Positions 12,049-16,845 of a stretch of 47,401 nucleotides of DNA are shown here, one piece after another. The DNA lies in the IMG/VR virus record IMGVR_UViG_3300037467_000548, positions 1 through 47,401 of that record; one strand, written 5' to 3'. The notes under the pieces were generated by a model. The model saw only the letters and a program-made list of their open reading frames with translations. It had not been told where the DNA came from and ran no database searches. Within the stretch, counting starts at the first letter, position 1. Each line of letters begins with the position of its first letter. Both the position numbers and the translations under genes were made by a program. This DNA comes from a virus.

Positions 12049-12336
12049 TTACTCCTGTGAGGGGCTGACAATGGCAATTGCCGCCCGAAGCGTTTCATTT
12101 TGCACCGTGAGGTCATGCAGTTCTGCGCGGTAACGTTCCATCGTCTCATTCGCCGCGTCGATGGCACACGGGAGGCAATGAACGGCTCGCTTGTCCATAT
12201 CGACGAAGCGCCCGTCACATCTGACGCAGCGGCCCAGATAGTTGCCAGGAGCGTAACCAGCCAGCGGCCATGTCGGCTCCCGATGCGTGGCGGCATTCTT
12301 CCAGTCAAATATGATGCGCTCTTTCACCTTGGCCAT
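12049..12336 (-). CDS. Cys-rich (zinc-binding-like) hypothetical protein (95 aa)
   Basis: AGGAGAG RBS, with CVRCDG ... HCLPC followed by a coiled-coil tail. Confidence 0.65.
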   Translation of the reverse strand: MAKVKERIIFDWKNAATHREPTWPLAGYAPGNYLGRCVRCDGRFVDMDKRAVHCLPCAIDAANETMERYRAELHDLTVQNETLRAAIAIVSPSQE

Positions 12337-12346
12337 TCCATCTCTC

Positions 12347-12727
12347 CTATAGTAGCAGGGAAGGGGCACTCAGCTCGGCGATCAGCGAAAGCAGAGCGTC
12401 GGATTTCCGAAACCATTCCCCATGGAGTCTGTCGGCAATGAAGCGCTGATGCAGTTCCTTTTCCATGCTCGCCTTGCCGGGAATTACAGCGAGAAGCCGA
12501 AGGCGATATGGGCAGCACATCTGAAGCTTAACTAGCCGCCGCTGTGCGTCGGCGGCTATGCCGATCTTGATGTGACGTTCAGCGCACTCGGTCTCGATGA
12601 AGTAGAGATCGGTCGCCGGAGCGATATCCTTATCCAGTCGCGCGGCGGGCAGGCGTCGGCCTGACCATGCCCGATCTGGCTTCGGGATGTTTTCAACTTC
12701 GGCCATGCGCTGCTTGAAATAACTCAT
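12347..12727 (-). CDS. T5orf172 / GIY-YIG-like domain protein
   Basis: Motifs are YFIE..HIKIGIA, RLVKLQ, LRLLAVIPG, E.ELHQRF and HGEWF. A GAGG RBS precedes ATG 12727. Confidence 0.7.
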   Translation of the reverse strand: MSYFKQRMAEVENIPKPDRAWSGRRLPAARLDKDIAPATDLYFIETECAERHIKIGIAADAQRRLVKLQMCCPYRLRLLAVIPGKASMEKELHQRFIADRLHGEWFRKSDALLSLIAELSAPSLLL

Positions 12728-12770
12728 ATTGACCTCGCGGAATAATGCGGAACGATACGAGAACAATACT

Positions 12771-12779
12771 GTCTAACCG
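12771..12779. repeat. Inverted copy (GTCTAACCG) of the CGGTTAGAC repeats
   Basis: It is the reverse complement of the motif repeated at 12876-12896. Confidence 0.6.
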
Positions 12780-12864
12780 GCTCGTTGAAAACCGCAGAAT
12801 TGCGCGGTTCGTTCAGTCCCTCCGGGCCCACCAGACCCCTTGCTGCATAAGGCGTTGAGTATAA

Positions 12865-12897
12865 GGATAGACAGTCGGTTAGACAATCGGTTAGACA
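12865..12897. repeat. Three phased direct repeats (12-nt period): ggATAGACAgtc GGTTAGACAatc GGTTAGACAc; arm-type site candidates
   Basis: Read directly from the sequence. The repeats overlap the 3' end of the gene downstream of int. Confidence 0.6.
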
Positions 12898-13427
12898 CTG
12901 CCGCTCTCCGCACGGAAATAGCGCATCCGCCGAACTAGGAGCCTAAGTGGCTCCTCGCCCCAATTGTTCATCGCCAGATTCACGATCTCGCAGACGAGTC
13001 TGACATTCGAACGGACATAGCCGAGTTTCGGAATGATCCGATCTATGCTTGGTCGGAAAGCCTGCTTCTCTCGCGGTGAACCGTCTTTCGTCACATGAAA
13101 TGGGATGCCGCTAACCGCGCAACGATAGTCCTGGTCAAGCAGCATACGCTCGAAGTCTTCCTCTGTAAGGTCGAATGGTACGTCAGCGCGCGTCGCCCGC
13201 GTCCTCGCGCGTTTCAGCGCCGGCTTCAAATGTCGGTTGAGCATTGTCTCCCGGTCGCGGCCCTCTAGCGGCGAGCCGTTTGCTGCTTTGTCATAGGCGT
13301 CATCAAAGCATTGTTCGCCAGGATGCCCCGGCAAGTAGCAAATACGTCCATGCTTCCGGTACCGCCAGCGCGTTGTGCCGTGACGGTCTGTCGTCGTGGT
13401 GACGTTGGGATATCCGTCTGCTTTCAT
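12891..13427 (-). CDS. Integrase-arm-domain paralog fused to a degenerate HNH/endonuclease VII-like domain
   Basis: N-terminal residues 5-51 align ungapped with Int residues 3-49 at 24/47 identities (GYP.V....DRHGTTR.R.R..G...YLP..PG...F..AY..A..G). The C-terminus reads CAVSG...PSIDRIIPKLGYVRSNVRLVCEIVNLAMNNW. The ATG lies 1 nt after the int stop. Confidence 0.7.
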   Translation of the reverse strand: MKADGYPNVTTTTDRHGTTRWRYRKHGRICYLPGHPGEQCFDDAYDKAANGSPLEGRDRETMLNRHLKPALKRARTRATRADVPFDLTEEDFERMLLDQDYRCAVSGIPFHVTKDGSPREKQAFRPSIDRIIPKLGYVRSNVRLVCEIVNLAMNNWGEEPLRLLVRRMRYFRAESGSV

Positions 13428-13428
13428 G

Positions 13429-14493
13429 TCACGCGAACCGCTTCACCAGCTTGGTCATGCCATCCACCGCAAGCCGCTCCTGTTCCGCTTCCTTGCTGTA
13501 CAATTCCACGTGGTCCAAGTCGTCGTGACCGAGGATCCCGGCCGACTGTTTTGCAGTCGCGCCTTCCTCGGCGAGATATTTTCCCAGCGTCTTTCGCAGT
13601 CCGTGAAATGTGCAGCCAGGCTGCATGCCGGCCAGCTTCGTCCAATGCGCCATCATGCCCGTGAGCGACTTCTCCGAAAACGAATTGCCATAGGCGTTCG
13701 ATATTACCGTGTCCGTGCGTCGCGGGATGTCGATCAGTGCCGCCTTGAGCATCGGCAGCATGAGCAAACGCAGCACCTTGTCTGTCTTCTCCTGCCGCAC
13801 GGTGATCCTGTCCCGGTCGAAGTCCACATCGGTCCAGAGCTGCGCCGCAACGTCGCCGCGACGGTTCCCCGCCCATAGAGCCAGCGCATAGGCTGCCCGA
13901 GGCATCGTCCCGGTGGGCCACCGCTTTTCGAAGGTCGCGCGCTCCTTCTCCGTCCATGCCCGCCAGCCGCCATATTCCGGCCGCCAACCCATCTTCAGCG
14001 ACGGGTCGTGCTCGATCCAATCTTGATCCATGGCCTCGGTTATAAGCCGGCGAATTGAGGTTAGCATGTGCTTCGCCTTGTGCGGCGTCTCGCCATGTTC
14101 GTTCAGGATCATCTTGACGTGCCGGCGCCGGAGATCCGATACAGGAATTCTGCCCCATGTTGTCGGGTCGTCCTCGTCCACGCGAGAGGCTAGGAATTCC
14201 TTGGTCAGGCGCTCGTTCTTGTATTTCGTCGCCTCGTCCAGCTTGCGCCACTCGACGCCCTTCTGAACCAGCCGCCAAGCATCGGCAAAGGTCTTGGATA
14301 TGATGGCCTTCGGATGCGCAACGATTGCCGCTAGGCGCGGTTCCCGACCTTCCAACGCTGCGCTGTAGGCTTCCTCGAACTCGGGGTGCCCTGGTTCCTG
14401 CGGCAGATAGATCGACTTTCCCGCGCGTCGAAAGCGATAGCGGGTCGTGCCGTGCCGGTCCTCGAACGGTGAGACGTAGGGGTAGCCTTCCAT
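13429..14493 (-). CDS. int: Tyrosine integrase
   Basis: Catalytic-type motifs are GNRRGDV (Arg), HGLRKT (H-x-x-R), LGH and ELYSKE (Tyr). Confidence 0.9.
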   Translation of the reverse strand: MEGYPYVSPFEDRHGTTRYRFRRAGKSIYLPQEPGHPEFEEAYSAALEGREPRLAAIVAHPKAIISKTFADAWRLVQKGVEWRKLDEATKYKNERLTKEFLASRVDEDDPTTWGRIPVSDLRRRHVKMILNEHGETPHKAKHMLTSIRRLITEAMDQDWIEHDPSLKMGWRPEYGGWRAWTEKERATFEKRWPTGTMPRAAYALALWAGNRRGDVAAQLWTDVDFDRDRITVRQEKTDKVLRLLMLPMLKAALIDIPRRTDTVISNAYGNSFSEKSLTGMMAHWTKLAGMQPGCTFHGLRKTLGKYLAEEGATAKQSAGILGHDDLDHVELYSKEAEQERLAVDGMTKLVKRFA

Positions 14494-14501
14494 GAGCGCA
14501 T

Positions 14502-14753
14502 CTAAGCCGCACGGTTGCGCCCCGACAAGATGCGATCGATCTTGTTACCGTCATCCCCAGGCAGATCGGTGAAGTAGGCGTCGAGCTGAATCCGATCCCA
14601 AACTGTCCGGCTGTTGGCGCGCTTCGGCCTCGGCATCCGGCCGTCTGACACCATCTCATCAAACAGCGTCGGGCCCACGCCGATGTATCTGGCGGCTTCC
14701 TCGCGTGACAGGCCGCGCGGCGGATATGGGAGCGTGTCGTGTGGCTTACTCAA
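14502..14753 (-). CDS. xis: Excisionase / AlpA-like HTH protein
   Basis: The HTH is GLSREEAARYIGVGPTLFDEMV. A TTG start has an AGGAG RBS 9 nt upstream and overlaps the upstream stop. The gene lies directly upstream of int. Confidence 0.65.
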   Translation of the reverse strand: MSKPHDTLPYPPRGLSREEAARYIGVGPTLFDEMVSDGRMPRPKRANSRTVWDRIQLDAYFTDLPGDDGNKIDRILSGRNRAA

Positions 14754-15022
14754 GGCTGCGACTCCTGGGCGGGGCGGACGAGAGCGGCATCCCATGTTTC
14801 CTGAGCAGATCGCAGCGACAGCAGATGCGTGGCATCGATATGCGACAGGCTCATGCGGCTGATATTGAATGCCGCGTTTGCCAAGGGCTTCCCAGCTTGC
14901 AAGATGCGCTCGTTCCTCGCCTCCAGTTCCGCTATATGCTCTAGAAGGCGGCGGATATCGCTGCGCTGGAATCTGCAGCGACCGGCGCGCATCTGCTCTA
15001 TAAGAGAGGAGATGTCAGCCAT
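14750..15022 (-). CDS. Hypothetical protein (90 aa), paralog of 16498..16845
   Basis: Both share the C-terminal motif LANAAFNI...L.SLRSAQETWDA. Confidence 0.6.
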   Translation of the reverse strand: MADISSLIEQMRAGRCRFQRSDIRRLLEHIAELEARNERILQAGKPLANAAFNISRMSLSHIDATHLLSLRSAQETWDAALVRPAQESQP

Positions 15023-15233
15023 TACCGCCTCCGACTATGGTGGTCTTGCTCCAGCGGTTGCCCTCGTCCTTCGTGAAGCCAGCGCGGCTCAAGATTTCTT
15101 CACAGGTCCAATAGGCTTCCCAGCCCGCTTTGTAGGCTGGGTGAGCATCGGGGAATAGCGGCTCTCCATGCTGCGCATCGAAGAAGCCGGCGTGATAGCC
15201 TGGATCGTGCCGCCAATTGATGTCAGCGCTCAT
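15015..15233 (-). CDS. Hypothetical protein (72 aa)
   Basis: Third-position GC is high. Its ATG overlaps the tnpB TGA (ATGA). Confidence 0.6.
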   Translation of the reverse strand: MSADINWRHDPGYHAGFFDAQHGEPLFPDAHPAYKAGWEAYWTCEEILSRAGFTKDEGNRWSKTTIVGGGNG

Positions 15234-15420
15234 CGTTCTGCCTCATGAGACAGGAAGCGGGCTGCGGCTCTCGGAAGCAGCCGCCTTGCCTCGGATAGTG
15301 GCTGCTCAGCAGCTTCACGTTTCACCGACAGGCTACGCAGCGTCAGCTTTCGCCGACGGGCGGGACTCCCATCTCCACGCGCTGTAACGGCTCTATCCGC
15401 CGCCATTCGTTCAAGATTGC
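15210..15420 (-). ncRNA. Candidate TnpB omega-RNA (reRNA) scaffold overlapping the tnpB 3' end; boundaries unknown
   Basis: About 60 Arg/Ala-rich codons follow NAARNL with lowered third-position GC. Hairpins include GUCGGC-GAAA-GCUGAC, GCUGC-UGA-GCAGC and GGCUGC..GCAGCC. Confidence 0.3.
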
Positions 15421-16498
15421 GTGCCGCGTTCTCGTCGCGGTCGCACATAAAGCCGCAGTCCTCGCAATTGAAGGTGCGGTCAGCAAGCGTGAGCTTTTCC
15501 TTCACGCTGCCACAGCAAGAACATGTCTTGCTGGAGGGATAGAAACGATCTGCCTCGACCAAGGCATTTGCCTTGTAGGCTAGCTGGCGCCGAATTTCGT
15601 AGAAGCCGACATCCGCGATATGCCGGGCCAAGCGACCGTTTCGAAGTAGATTGCGAACGGCGATGGTCTCGACGCCGATGCGTTCAGCCATGCCAGCTAT
15701 AGTAGCCGTCGCGTTGTGCTGGAAATTCGTTCGGATATCAGCGATCCGTTTTTGAAGTCGCGCCACCTTTGCCCGCGCTCGCCGCCTGCGCCCGGAACCA
15801 ACTTGGCGCCGGTGGAGGTTTCTGTTGGCCCTCCTTAGCTTGCGACGCTCCACATTCAGCCGTTCAATTAGATTGCTGCCTAAATCTGCTGATGCTCCAG
15901 CGCAGGCCACTTTGATCGGGGTCTTGATGCCGAGATCGACGCCAGCCGCTTTATTCTGGCGCGGCTGACTCTCTACGTTCGGTATGTCGAAGCTGATTGA
16001 GGCATACCATTTCCCAGCCTTCCGGCTGACTACCGCTCTGATGATCCTTGCGTCTGGCCAACGGCAAGCACGGCTGAGGCTTACCGCGCCGACCTTCATC
16101 AGCTTCAGCTTACCACCAGCAACTGCGCATTGATTGGCGAAGGCGACAACGAAGCTTTCCTTGGCTTTGCCCTTCGCCTTGAATCGCGGATATCTCGCTT
16201 GGCCGGTCCGGTAAGCCTCATAGGCTTGCGCTACAGCGAAGATGGCATGTTCTGGAACGAGTTTGGAAATATCAGTAATCCACGGCCACCTTTCGCGCTT
16301 GATGGCGTTGAACTGCCGCTGGAGCGCGTAGTTTGAAGGGAACGGGGATTGTTTGCCAGTCTGCCACCACTCGATAGCCTGGCGCTTCCACTCGTCTAGA
16401 GCCCAATTGTAGGCCATGCGCGCGATGCCGGCCGCACGAGCAAAGTATTCGGCCTGCGCCTTCGTCGGGTGCAATTGAAAAACTTGAGCCCGATGCAT
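15230..16498 (-). CDS. tnpB: TnpB (IS200/IS605-family OrfB, RNA-guided endonuclease); no tnpA present
   Basis: The N-terminus is MHRAQVFQLHPTKAQAEYF..RMAYNWAL. RuvC motifs are GVDLGIK, GVETIAVRNL and CDRDENAARNL. The zinc ribbon is CSCCG..CEDCG. Confidence 0.9.
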   Translation of the reverse strand: MHRAQVFQLHPTKAQAEYFARAAGIARMAYNWALDEWKRQAIEWWQTGKQSPFPSNYALQRQFNAIKRERWPWITDISKLVPEHAIFAVAQAYEAYRTGQARYPRFKAKGKAKESFVVAFANQCAVAGGKLKLMKVGAVSLSRACRWPDARIIRAVVSRKAGKWYASISFDIPNVESQPRQNKAAGVDLGIKTPIKVACAGASADLGSNLIERLNVERRKLRRANRNLHRRQVGSGRRRRARAKVARLQKRIADIRTNFQHNATATIAGMAERIGVETIAVRNLLRNGRLARHIADVGFYEIRRQLAYKANALVEADRFYPSSKTCSCCGSVKEKLTLADRTFNCEDCGFMCDRDENAARNLERMAADRAVTARGDGSPARRRKLTLRSLSVKREAAEQPLSEARRLLPRAAARFLSHEAER

Positions 16499-16845
16499 CA
16501 GCGCACCTTCGCCACGACGGCGTCCCATGCCTCTTGCGCTTCCTTTAGCGCGCGAAGTGAGTCCGCATCAACTTGACCGCGCTGGTAGATATTATAGGCC
16601 GCATTTGCCAACATAGCGCCAGGAGACTTCAGCGCCCTTGCCTCTGCAAGGGAGGACTCGGCGGCCTCACAGCGGGCAACGGCTTCGGAGGCAGTTAGAG
16701 CGGCTCGGGCCAGCCCATACCAATGTGGTTTGTGTTGCGACGGCCACAGCGCTTCGATCTTCTCCGGGCTAAGGTGTGGCTCGTTGGCCTTGGCAAAGAT
16801 GGCCTTCGCAGCGCGTTCCATCATAGCTTCAGTGGCATCAACCAT
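16498..16845 (-). CDS. Hypothetical protein (115 aa), paralog of 14750..15022
   Basis: C-terminal motif LANAAYNI...LRALKEAQEAWDA. Its TGA overlaps the tnpB ATG by 1 nt. Confidence 0.6.
   Translation of the reverse strand: MVDATEAMMERAAKAIFAKANEPHLSPEKIEALWPSQHKPHWYGLARAALTASEAVARCEAAESSLAEARALKSPGAMLANAAYNIYQRGQVDADSLRALKEAQEAWDAVVAKVR

Follow-up and report, generated by a model that had tools for sequence, protein, structure and literature searches.

The gene described here is an open reading frame (ORF) of 178 residues at positions 12891-13427, on the minus strand, of the viral DNA record IMGVR_UViG_3300037467_000548 from IMG/VR (47,401 nucleotides, analysed over its whole length and hereafter called the window). 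The halves of its product recall different described systems. PacI (PDB 3LDY/3M7K; His-Me finger group 20, PMC5714182) is a stand-alone homodimeric restriction enzyme that recognises TTAATTAA. It has no catalytic His; instead, a loop tyrosine does the job of this residue, and Asp and Asn bind a single metal (PMC5714182, PMC4081073, PMC3384342). The published group 20 is small, with 78 viral, 4 bacterial and 6 eukaryotic sequences (PMC5714182). T4 endonuclease VII, a Holliday junction resolvase, is a domain-swapped dimer that keeps the catalytic His and a zinc site. Free-standing phage homing endonucleases (I-HmuI-type, AP2-HNH; the F-CphI 'DHHRN' family, PMC6083498) are small proteins in which a separable DNA-binding module is joined to a His-Me nuclease. 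Their genes are inserted between conserved phage genes and occur sporadically among relatives, and their N-terminal modules are swapped. The arm-binding domain of lambda integrase (Int; PDB 1KJK, 1Z1B) occupies the N-terminus of a tyrosine integrase.

Based on the evidence presented below, the window gene may be a sporadic, homing-endonuclease-like nuclease targeted to the arm sites of the attachment (att) region, a reading to which a probability of about 0.45 is given. The resemblance to free-standing homing endonucleases rests on sporadic presence, a fixed slot, apparently intact catalytic residues and swappable targeting modules. In contrast to those enzymes, the family of the window protein has Asp-Arg (DR) and a Tyr in place of the catalytic His, and its targeting module is a paralogue of the N-domain of the adjacent Int and changes with that integrase. 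The presumed address is also different, namely recombination arm sites and not a coding sequence, and homing is putative here. The gene, its parts and the neighbouring integrase gene are as follows:

12891..13427, minus strand: nuclease-like ORF of two domains (Int-like N-domain and PacI-type HNH domain); 178 residues, AlphaFold2 (AF2) mean pLDDT (predicted local distance difference test) 91, 56 homologues
13275..13427, minus strand: N-terminal domain (residues 1-51), a paralogue of Int residues 1-49 by BLASTP, ungapped identities with shuffles, and AF2 secondary structure
12894..13259, minus strand: C-terminal region of the 178-residue ORF; matches to PHROG endonuclease families, with PacI the top PDB match by profile and Foldseek
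12960..13052, minus strand: predicted beta-beta-alpha-metal (beta-beta-alpha-Me) core, residues 126-156 with D129, R130, Y137, N141 and N150, from conservation in 64 homologues and alignment to PacI
13429..14493, minus strand: tyrosine integrase gene int, 354 residues; Pfam Phage_integrase (1.6e-15) and phrog_1 integrase

The N-terminal domain and its cognate integrase

The N-terminal part of the window protein shares with the arm-binding domain of lambda Int its location at the N-terminus of a tyrosine integrase and a predicted beta-beta-beta-alpha order, with three strands followed by a helix in the AF2 model. In contrast to lambda Int, the domain is here joined to a nuclease and not to a recombinase. 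Aligned without gaps, ORF residues 5-51 and Int residues 3-49 are identical at 24 of 47 positions, which is exactly the count reached in a preliminary description of the window made from the sequence alone. None of 100,000 shuffles reached 24 identities, and the maximum was 11. By BLASTP, the ORF N-domain aligns with residues 2-51 of the adjacent Int at 27 of 55 positions (E 4e-14), so that the small module earlier said to be common to the two neighbours is a paralogous domain.

The same homology between the N-domain of the nuclease and that of the adjacent Int holds in 15 further loci. In a blind test of 79 nuclease ORFs, the region preceding the nuclease domain matched an ORF of the same locus in 15 cases, and the matched ORF was always the upstream integrase. 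The integrases fall into several classes by their N-termini. The Int of the window has the pattern DRHGxxRWRYR...LPGxPG, and elsewhere the patterns are LKGLHxVxMNGxxYYY (locus L006), YPxRSPYWYVRGT (L008), LPKYVYxQxxxGHxYYRFRR (L093), a lambda-like GRRxxxEDxWMPxRVYRGKSxYE (L095) and GIKxTTVxGxTYYYRR (L105), plus others. In at least seven sequence classes that are unrelated to each other, the nuclease N-domain corresponds to that of its own integrase, and for 7 of 10 class representatives its similarity to its own Int far exceeds that to any other Int or nuclease. The nuclease N-domain of L095, for example, scores 167 against its own Int and at most 45 against others. When the pairing of Ints and nucleases was permuted, the observed total was reached in 0 of 100,000 permutations.

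A single ancient fusion that diverged together with the integrases predicts that the nuclease N-domains resemble each other more than they resemble the integrases, and the opposite is seen. Because likeness to the own Int exceeds likeness among the nucleases, the domain was either captured repeatedly or kept in step by conversion. Judged from these comparisons, matching to the local integrase appears to matter. The idea, raised in the preliminary description, of a nuclease acting on att sites is strengthened, since the N-domain follows its cognate integrase across several unrelated sequence classes. For the lambda-like subclass of nuclease N-domains, the profile matches the lambda Int arm-binding domain 1KJK (E 4.4e-5), and by this match the N-module of that subclass is a true arm-binding-domain homologue.

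The C-terminal domain and its family

Neither Pfam nor NCBIfam has a match to the 178-residue ORF or to five of its homologues. Residues 59-169, in turn, match the PHROG families phrog_3322 'endonuclease' (4e-24), phrog_1035 'endonuclease VII' (3.5e-15) and phrog_3118 'HNH endonuclease' (3e-14). The AF2 model, built from 28 homologues, contains a strand at 126-130, a second strand at 142-146 and a helix at 147-156, which is how a beta-beta-alpha-metal fold is ordered. When the whole model was compared with the PDB by Foldseek, the top matches were all HNH domains (Cas9, PacI, Cap5 and T4 endonuclease VII), and PacI was the best of them (prob 0.98, template modelling (TM) scores 0.41/0.48, E 0.097). 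No match to the whole model reached E < 0.05 because the query has two domains, and the ranking is still informative. PacI was also the sole real match in PDB profile searches, at E 0.019 with the full-length profile and 0.0053 with a profile of 38 C-domains, although by both fold and profile its scores are weak. The HNH/endonuclease VII-like core that had been proposed from residue spacing is thus upheld by the PHROG families, the AF2 core and the Foldseek matches. The similarity to T4 endonuclease VII itself is distant, at the level of fold and family (phrog_1035; 1E7L among the Foldseek matches); the window protein differs from it in having Arg for His and shows no sign of junction specificity.

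The likeness to PacI includes the putative catalytic residues. Both proteins have Asp-Arg where other members have Asp-His, a loop Tyr that follows a Gly (xGY), and a helix Asn. In the alignment D129-R130 corresponds to D92-R93, G136-Y137 to G99-Y100, N141 to N104 and N150 to N113, where the PacI numbering follows the alignment and reviews supply the residue roles; Y137 falls on Y100, the sole Tyr of the PacI loop. Among 64 non-redundant C-domains drawn from genomes and metagenomes, F124, P126, D129, R130 and N150 are invariant, C103, S127 and N141 are present in 63, and Y137 in 62. In the remaining two, the Y137 column holds His, a chemically sensible swap that supports a catalytic role for this position. 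The proteins differ in their metal-binding cysteines and N-terminal regions: PacI has two Cys4 zinc sites and an HTH-like (helix-turn-helix) N-region, and the window family has one conserved Cys, and the window protein an integrase-derived domain. Of the four CxxC...CxxC positions of PacI, only C103 and C146 are kept in the window protein; C103 alone is conserved across the family, C146 being found in 16 of 64 homologues.

Two of the earlier observations on this domain therefore stand, since the 'DH' motif at the end of strand 1 does read DR, with Arg130 in place of the catalytic His in 64 of 64 sequences, and most of the zinc ligands are lost. The conclusion then drawn, that the HNH domain is degenerate, does not survive: DR with a loop Tyr is the arrangement of the active PacI, and a degenerate or dead HNH domain was rejected on the conservation of the PacI-type residues across the 64 homologues. 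By sequence and predicted structure, the C-terminal half is an apparently intact PacI-type variant of the HNH fold, with DR for DH and a loop Tyr. Its catalytic set is under strong constraint, and the protein is probably an active nuclease or nickase.

The family to which this domain belongs is large. A word-indexed search found 56 relatives, all recorded as unnamed 'hypothetical proteins'; about 18 of them have both the full length and the same N-domain. With the C-domain alone, an exhaustive phmmer search returned 8,463 cluster representatives at E <= 1e-3, of which 1,212 reached E <= 1e-10. This PacI-like SxDR...GY...N...N family has no model in Pfam or NCBIfam. Other members carry unrelated N-modules (zinc ribbon, HTH or helical) and are not next to integrases. 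Such varied N-modules across a family are the modular pattern typical of homing endonucleases, and the homing-endonuclease-like architecture assigned to the window protein in the preliminary description, a DNA-binding module with a His-Me nuclease and swapped N-modules, is a fair account of it. Cultured phages in INPHARED have relatives of the C-domain only, annotated as endonuclease, HNH, Srd or hypothetical, and lytic phages are among them; the fusion was found in none of the 50,697 records. For integrase-less members in freshwater phage contigs, the neighbouring genes gave uninformative PHROG matches. One freshwater metagenome contig (L096, 3246-4246) has two tandem C-domain ORFs of 200 and 140 residues that overlap by about 19 nt, suggesting a local duplication of the nuclease gene.

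Attachment site, insertion slot and distribution

By its gene content, which includes a portal, a major head protein, tail proteins and an internal virion protein, the window is the free genome of a temperate podovirus-like phage. On the minus strand the gene order is an Xis/HTH-like gene, int and the 178-residue ORF. The int stop codon (TGA, 13431-13429) and the ATG of the ORF (13427-13425) are separated by 1 base, so the reported start 1 nt after int is correct, and a consensus scan found no promoter-like or terminator-like site on the gene strand between the two genes. Beyond the ORF lies a 124-bp intergenic region, 12767-12890, which is the phage attachment site (attP) as judged from sequence, because its core equals the 3' end of the tRNA-Met gene abutting the prophages L001 (Phyllobacterium sp. 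YR531) and L003. The elements of this region are as follows:

12815..12833, minus strand: attP core of 19 nt, the same as the 3' end of tRNA-Met(CAT); TGGTGGGCCCGGAGGGACT on the gene strand matches the tRNA-Met abutting prophages L001 and L003
12865..12897, minus strand: three direct repeats in a 12-nt phase, reading TGTCTAACC, TGTCTAACC and TGTCTATCC on the gene strand; putative arm-type Int sites
12770..12778, plus strand: fourth, inverted copy of the repeat beyond the core; probably an arm site of the other arm, with an analogous inverted copy in L010

On the gene strand, the three direct repeats are thus followed by 32 nt, the core and the inverted repeat. The plus-strand copies are GGATAGACA at 12865-12873, GGTTAGACA at 12877-12885 and GGTTAGACA at 12889-12897, with the pattern GG(T/A)TAGACA. 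Five sites in the 47-kb window match the repeat with no more than one mismatch, and the four copies are four of them. The TAA stop of the nuclease gene is part of the copy at 12889-12897, the first on the gene strand, in agreement with the earlier remark that the 3' end of the ORF overlaps phased repeats. Arm-type Int sites have their model in lambda P'1-3, and, as in lambda, phased repeats flank the core. Because the core equals a tRNA-Met 3' end, the repeats are probably arm-type Int sites. Arrays of G(G/T)CTAACC stand at the equivalent position in L001, L003, L004 and L026 and in relatives that have no nuclease gene. A sigma-70-like element, TTGTCT-17-TATACT (12858-12886, minus strand), overlaps the arm repeats and points to the core and the T5orf172 gene beyond it, but it is no more than chance expects; if it were real, proteins at the arm sites could control it.

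The slot taken by the gene can be seen by comparison with relatives that lack it. In these, the int stop lies inside the first repeat (TGGCTAA|CC), two more copies follow at a 12-13-nt phase, and the tRNA of the prophages starts at a nearly constant 58 nt after int. In loci with the nuclease, the tRNA is 583-621 nt from int, and the array of repeats contains the nuclease stop instead (GTGTCTAA|CC in the window, GTGGCTAA|CC in L003 and L026). The gene is therefore a unit of about 540 nt at a constant place, with the int stop on one side and the arm-repeat array on the other, and a stop codon lies in the repeat either way. The layout of int, P' arm and core is unusually compact and rigid in dozens of nuclease-less Hyphomicrobiales prophages (L011-L065), in which the first of three TGGCTAACC-type repeats includes the int TAA and the target tRNAs are Met-CAT, Arg-CCT or Glu.

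The related integrases examined comprised 80 genome loci (Hyphomicrobiales, with Ints 37-69% identical to that of the window) and 18 IMG/VR loci. The nuclease was present in two of the genome loci, in Phyllobacterium YR531 and an Allorhizobium metagenome-assembled genome (MAG), and in none of the 18 IMG/VR loci. Among the loci without it are the closest relatives of the window Int, L009 and L010 (65% and 62% identity mid-protein, 81% and 84% at the C-end). Carriers are scattered among the Int lineages, and no clustering of the nuclease-bearing Ints that would indicate co-conversion of the int 3' end was seen. The proposed survey of co-occurrence between the fusion and its integrase clade thus finds the gene in 2 of 98 loci, and the gene is dispensable for the clade. 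With 96 of 98 related loci lacking the gene, the suggestion that it encodes a required directionality or architectural factor becomes unlikely, and this role was rejected. A recombination directionality factor (RDF) or excisionase is a conserved partner of its clade with a winged-helix or HTH fold; the window gene is sporadic, and its product has a different fold.

The neighbourhood of the nuclease was surveyed from the opposite direction by looking up 12 nuclease proteins by contig, one of which (P0013) is cut at a contig end and was excluded. In all 11 remaining contigs, a tyrosine integrase gene lies just upstream or across attP. The genes overlap by 4-8 nt in four loci, are separated by 2-13 nt or 140 nt in three, and have one or two small intervening ORFs in two. 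No other prophage gene separates the nuclease from the tRNA in L001, L003, L004 and L173. Together, metagenome, genome and viral sequences gave 16 distinct int-nuclease loci. The constant feature of these loci is closeness to the att arms rather than coupling to int.

Several further genes surround the integration module of the window. The Xis-like gene that had been noted upstream of int is present, with a strong match to a 'transcriptional regulator' family and weak matches to HTH_17 and excisionases:

14502..14795, minus strand: Xis-like/HTH regulator gene upstream of int; phrog_25900 (1.5e-21), phrog_66 excisionase (8e-6) and TIGR01764 (0.003)

Just upstream of it, inside the phage genome, is a TnpB/IS605-OrfB-like transposase gene (15230-16528, minus strand, 432 residues; phrog_506, 2.8e-90). 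On the other side of attP, a protein of 139 residues with T5orf172/MUG113 matches (12347-12766, minus strand; Pfam 3.6e-10 and 1.6e-07) starts 4 nt from the inverted arm repeat. The T5orf172/MUG113 domain belongs to the GIY-YIG clan, and attP thus has nuclease-like genes on both sides. The 3' end of this gene overlaps by 23 nt an ORF of 106 residues (12049-12369, minus strand) that matches FYDLN_acid weakly and has its cysteines in a CxxC...CxxC pattern (CVRCDGRF...CLPCAID).

Candidate functions and their meaning

A dispensable gene in a fixed slot, carrying the N-domain of the local integrase, is read here as a homing-endonuclease-like gene addressed to arm sites. In this scheme, the first approximately 51 residues, a diverged copy of the N-domain of the neighbouring Int and presumably its arm-site-binding domain, would hold the protein at the phased TGTCTAACC repeats beside the gene, which would also serve Int in the attP arm. 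A long helix is predicted to connect this domain to the PacI-type HNH (His-Me finger) domain, in which an Asp/Asn pair would hold the metal and Y137, in the loop, would replace the usual His as base or nucleophile. The protein would then nick or cut DNA near the arm sites, and the gene would be a free-standing, homing-endonuclease-like selfish or competitive element with the att arm sites as its address. Its expected targets would be the att regions of related phages and prophages that have no copy of the gene, and the benefit could be its own spread through break repair or damage to rivals. The arm sites would be a good target because they lie beside the gene, are common to relatives with the same type of Int and are not free to mutate. 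Arm-site binding, nuclease activity, target and benefit are all putative.

A number of observations weigh against this reading. The phage itself carries the arm sites, and a mechanism of self-protection is not visible in the sequence. No near-identical pair of phages with and without the gene was found, so that the boundary of the insertion is architectural and not nucleotide-exact; against L010, a nucleotide-level boundary could not be drawn because the two sequences are too far apart. Decayed copies of the gene, which a classic homing cycle should leave, were not seen. Short homologues of the P0013 type had been considered as decayed copies and were rejected, since P0013 is cut by the contig end. 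Nuclease and Int have diverged to a similar degree (about 50%), which horizontal spread explains no better than ancient co-inheritance followed by many losses. In L005 (3858-4030), three tandem CTTGGCAAA repeats directly follow the int stop and a fourth copy stands just before the nuclease start, so that a putative attP separates int from the nuclease; after integration, these genes would stand at opposite ends of the prophage. With a 7-nt seed, phased repeats beside the gene were not detected in the other N-domain classes, except possibly in L007. In addition, the sequence link to PacI is modest (E about 0.005-0.02), and the zinc sites that stabilise PacI are missing.

The fold of the N-domain also belongs among these points. 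The structure prediction and profile searches that had been suggested for both halves pointed for the C-terminal half to an HNH domain, with PacI as the best though weak match; for the N-terminal half they agreed only in topology and identified no known domain. A fold search with a model of the N-domain alone (pLDDT 84) gave nothing significant, with lambda Int, Tn916 Int and AP2 all outside the top 50. A PDB profile search with the class of the window, termed class A, returned noise and no known arm-binding or AP2 domain. In contrast to the lambda Int arm-binding domain, the window class (DRHGxxRxRxR...LPGxPG..F..AY) is thus without a detectable sequence or fold match, and the AP2/arm-like fold once attributed to it was not confirmed.

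Three other explanations share parts of this evidence. The closest concerns phage competition or superinfection exclusion. The protein would be the same arm-site-tethered nuclease, with the benefit lying in damage to the att regions of rivals and not in self-copying, and its victims would be phages and prophages with the same type of integrase and the same tRNA site. The (G/T)GCTAACC arm consensus and the tRNA-Met site are common to many related prophages, so rivals do carry the address; the sporadic occurrence of the gene and the second nuclease-like gene (T5orf172/MUG113) across attP are consistent with a competitive role as well. Nevertheless, a gene transcribed with int would be silent in an established lysogen, which is a poor fit to exclusion by a resident prophage, and the problem of self-targeting is the same as for a homing-endonuclease-like gene. 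Competition as the benefit, rather than self-copying, is considered unlikely. Somewhat less likely still is an accessory factor for site-specific recombination, recruited to the arm sites in the intasome by its Int-like N-domain, where the endonuclease VII/PacI-like domain could process intermediates such as stalled Holliday junctions, bias directionality or block re-integration after excision. A start 1 nt after the int stop, or a 4-nt overlap, in the window, L001, L003 and L004 means that the protein would be made with Int; the N-domain common to both proteins, the phrog_1035 'endonuclease VII' match with T4 endonuclease VII among the fold matches, and the constant position beside the att site point the same way. 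Against it, the 96 of 98 related integrase loci that manage without the gene imply that the recombination system needs no such factor. Moreover, coupling to int is not universal, given the intervening ORFs of L007 and L008 and the 140-nt gap with repeats in L005, and lytic phages without an integrase also carry this nuclease domain, joined to unrelated N-modules.

The remaining alternative, a catalytically inactive DNA-binding protein, would compete or cooperate with Int at the arm sites and so regulate integration or local transcription, with an HNH-like domain that, like SMAD MH1, would do no more than bind DNA or dimerise. The absence of the canonical catalytic His, the loss of most zinc ligands, weak PHROG matches to the T4 Srd/sigma-decoy families, which show that fold relatives have been annotated with non-nuclease roles, and the promoter-like element over the repeats would all suit such a protein. 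This explanation is regarded as improbable, and as the least probable of those considered. Across 64 diverse homologues, the full PacI-type set (D, R, Y, N, N) shows no or almost no variation, and the only substitute at the Tyr position is His, a competent general base, a pattern that indicates selection for catalysis; the promoter-like match, for its part, is at the level of chance.

Overall, the homing-endonuclease-like gene proposed here is built of known parts, namely an HNH fold of the PacI type, an integrase N-domain and the logic of homing endonucleases. Literature searches found no published description of a fusion of an arm domain with HNH, or of a nuclease bearing the N-domain of a neighbouring Int at attP. 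It is possible, though given slightly less weight than the reading of the window gene itself, that the gene represents a widespread and undescribed class of phage nucleases, with N-domains repeatedly captured from, or kept in step with, the arm-binding domain of the adjacent Int, which use the att arm repeats as their address and act as homing or competition parasites of the recombination machinery. Within a PacI-like family that exceeds 8,000 sequence clusters, there may be hundreds of forms linked to integrases, and the PacI-type (Tyr-dependent HNH) group would expand from a handful of sequences to a large family. If this is true, a selfish or competitive nuclease would have a new route to specificity, in which it borrows a DNA-binding domain from an adjacent gene with nearby sites, and these arm sites cannot mutate away because the integrase needs them. 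Natural pairs of integrase and nuclease with one address could also yield programmable nickases or cutters directed to att sites. For the phages themselves, such nucleases would be an unrecognised player at attachment sites that could affect the competition of prophages for tRNA sites, how mosaic integration modules are and where the limits of genetic exchange lie.

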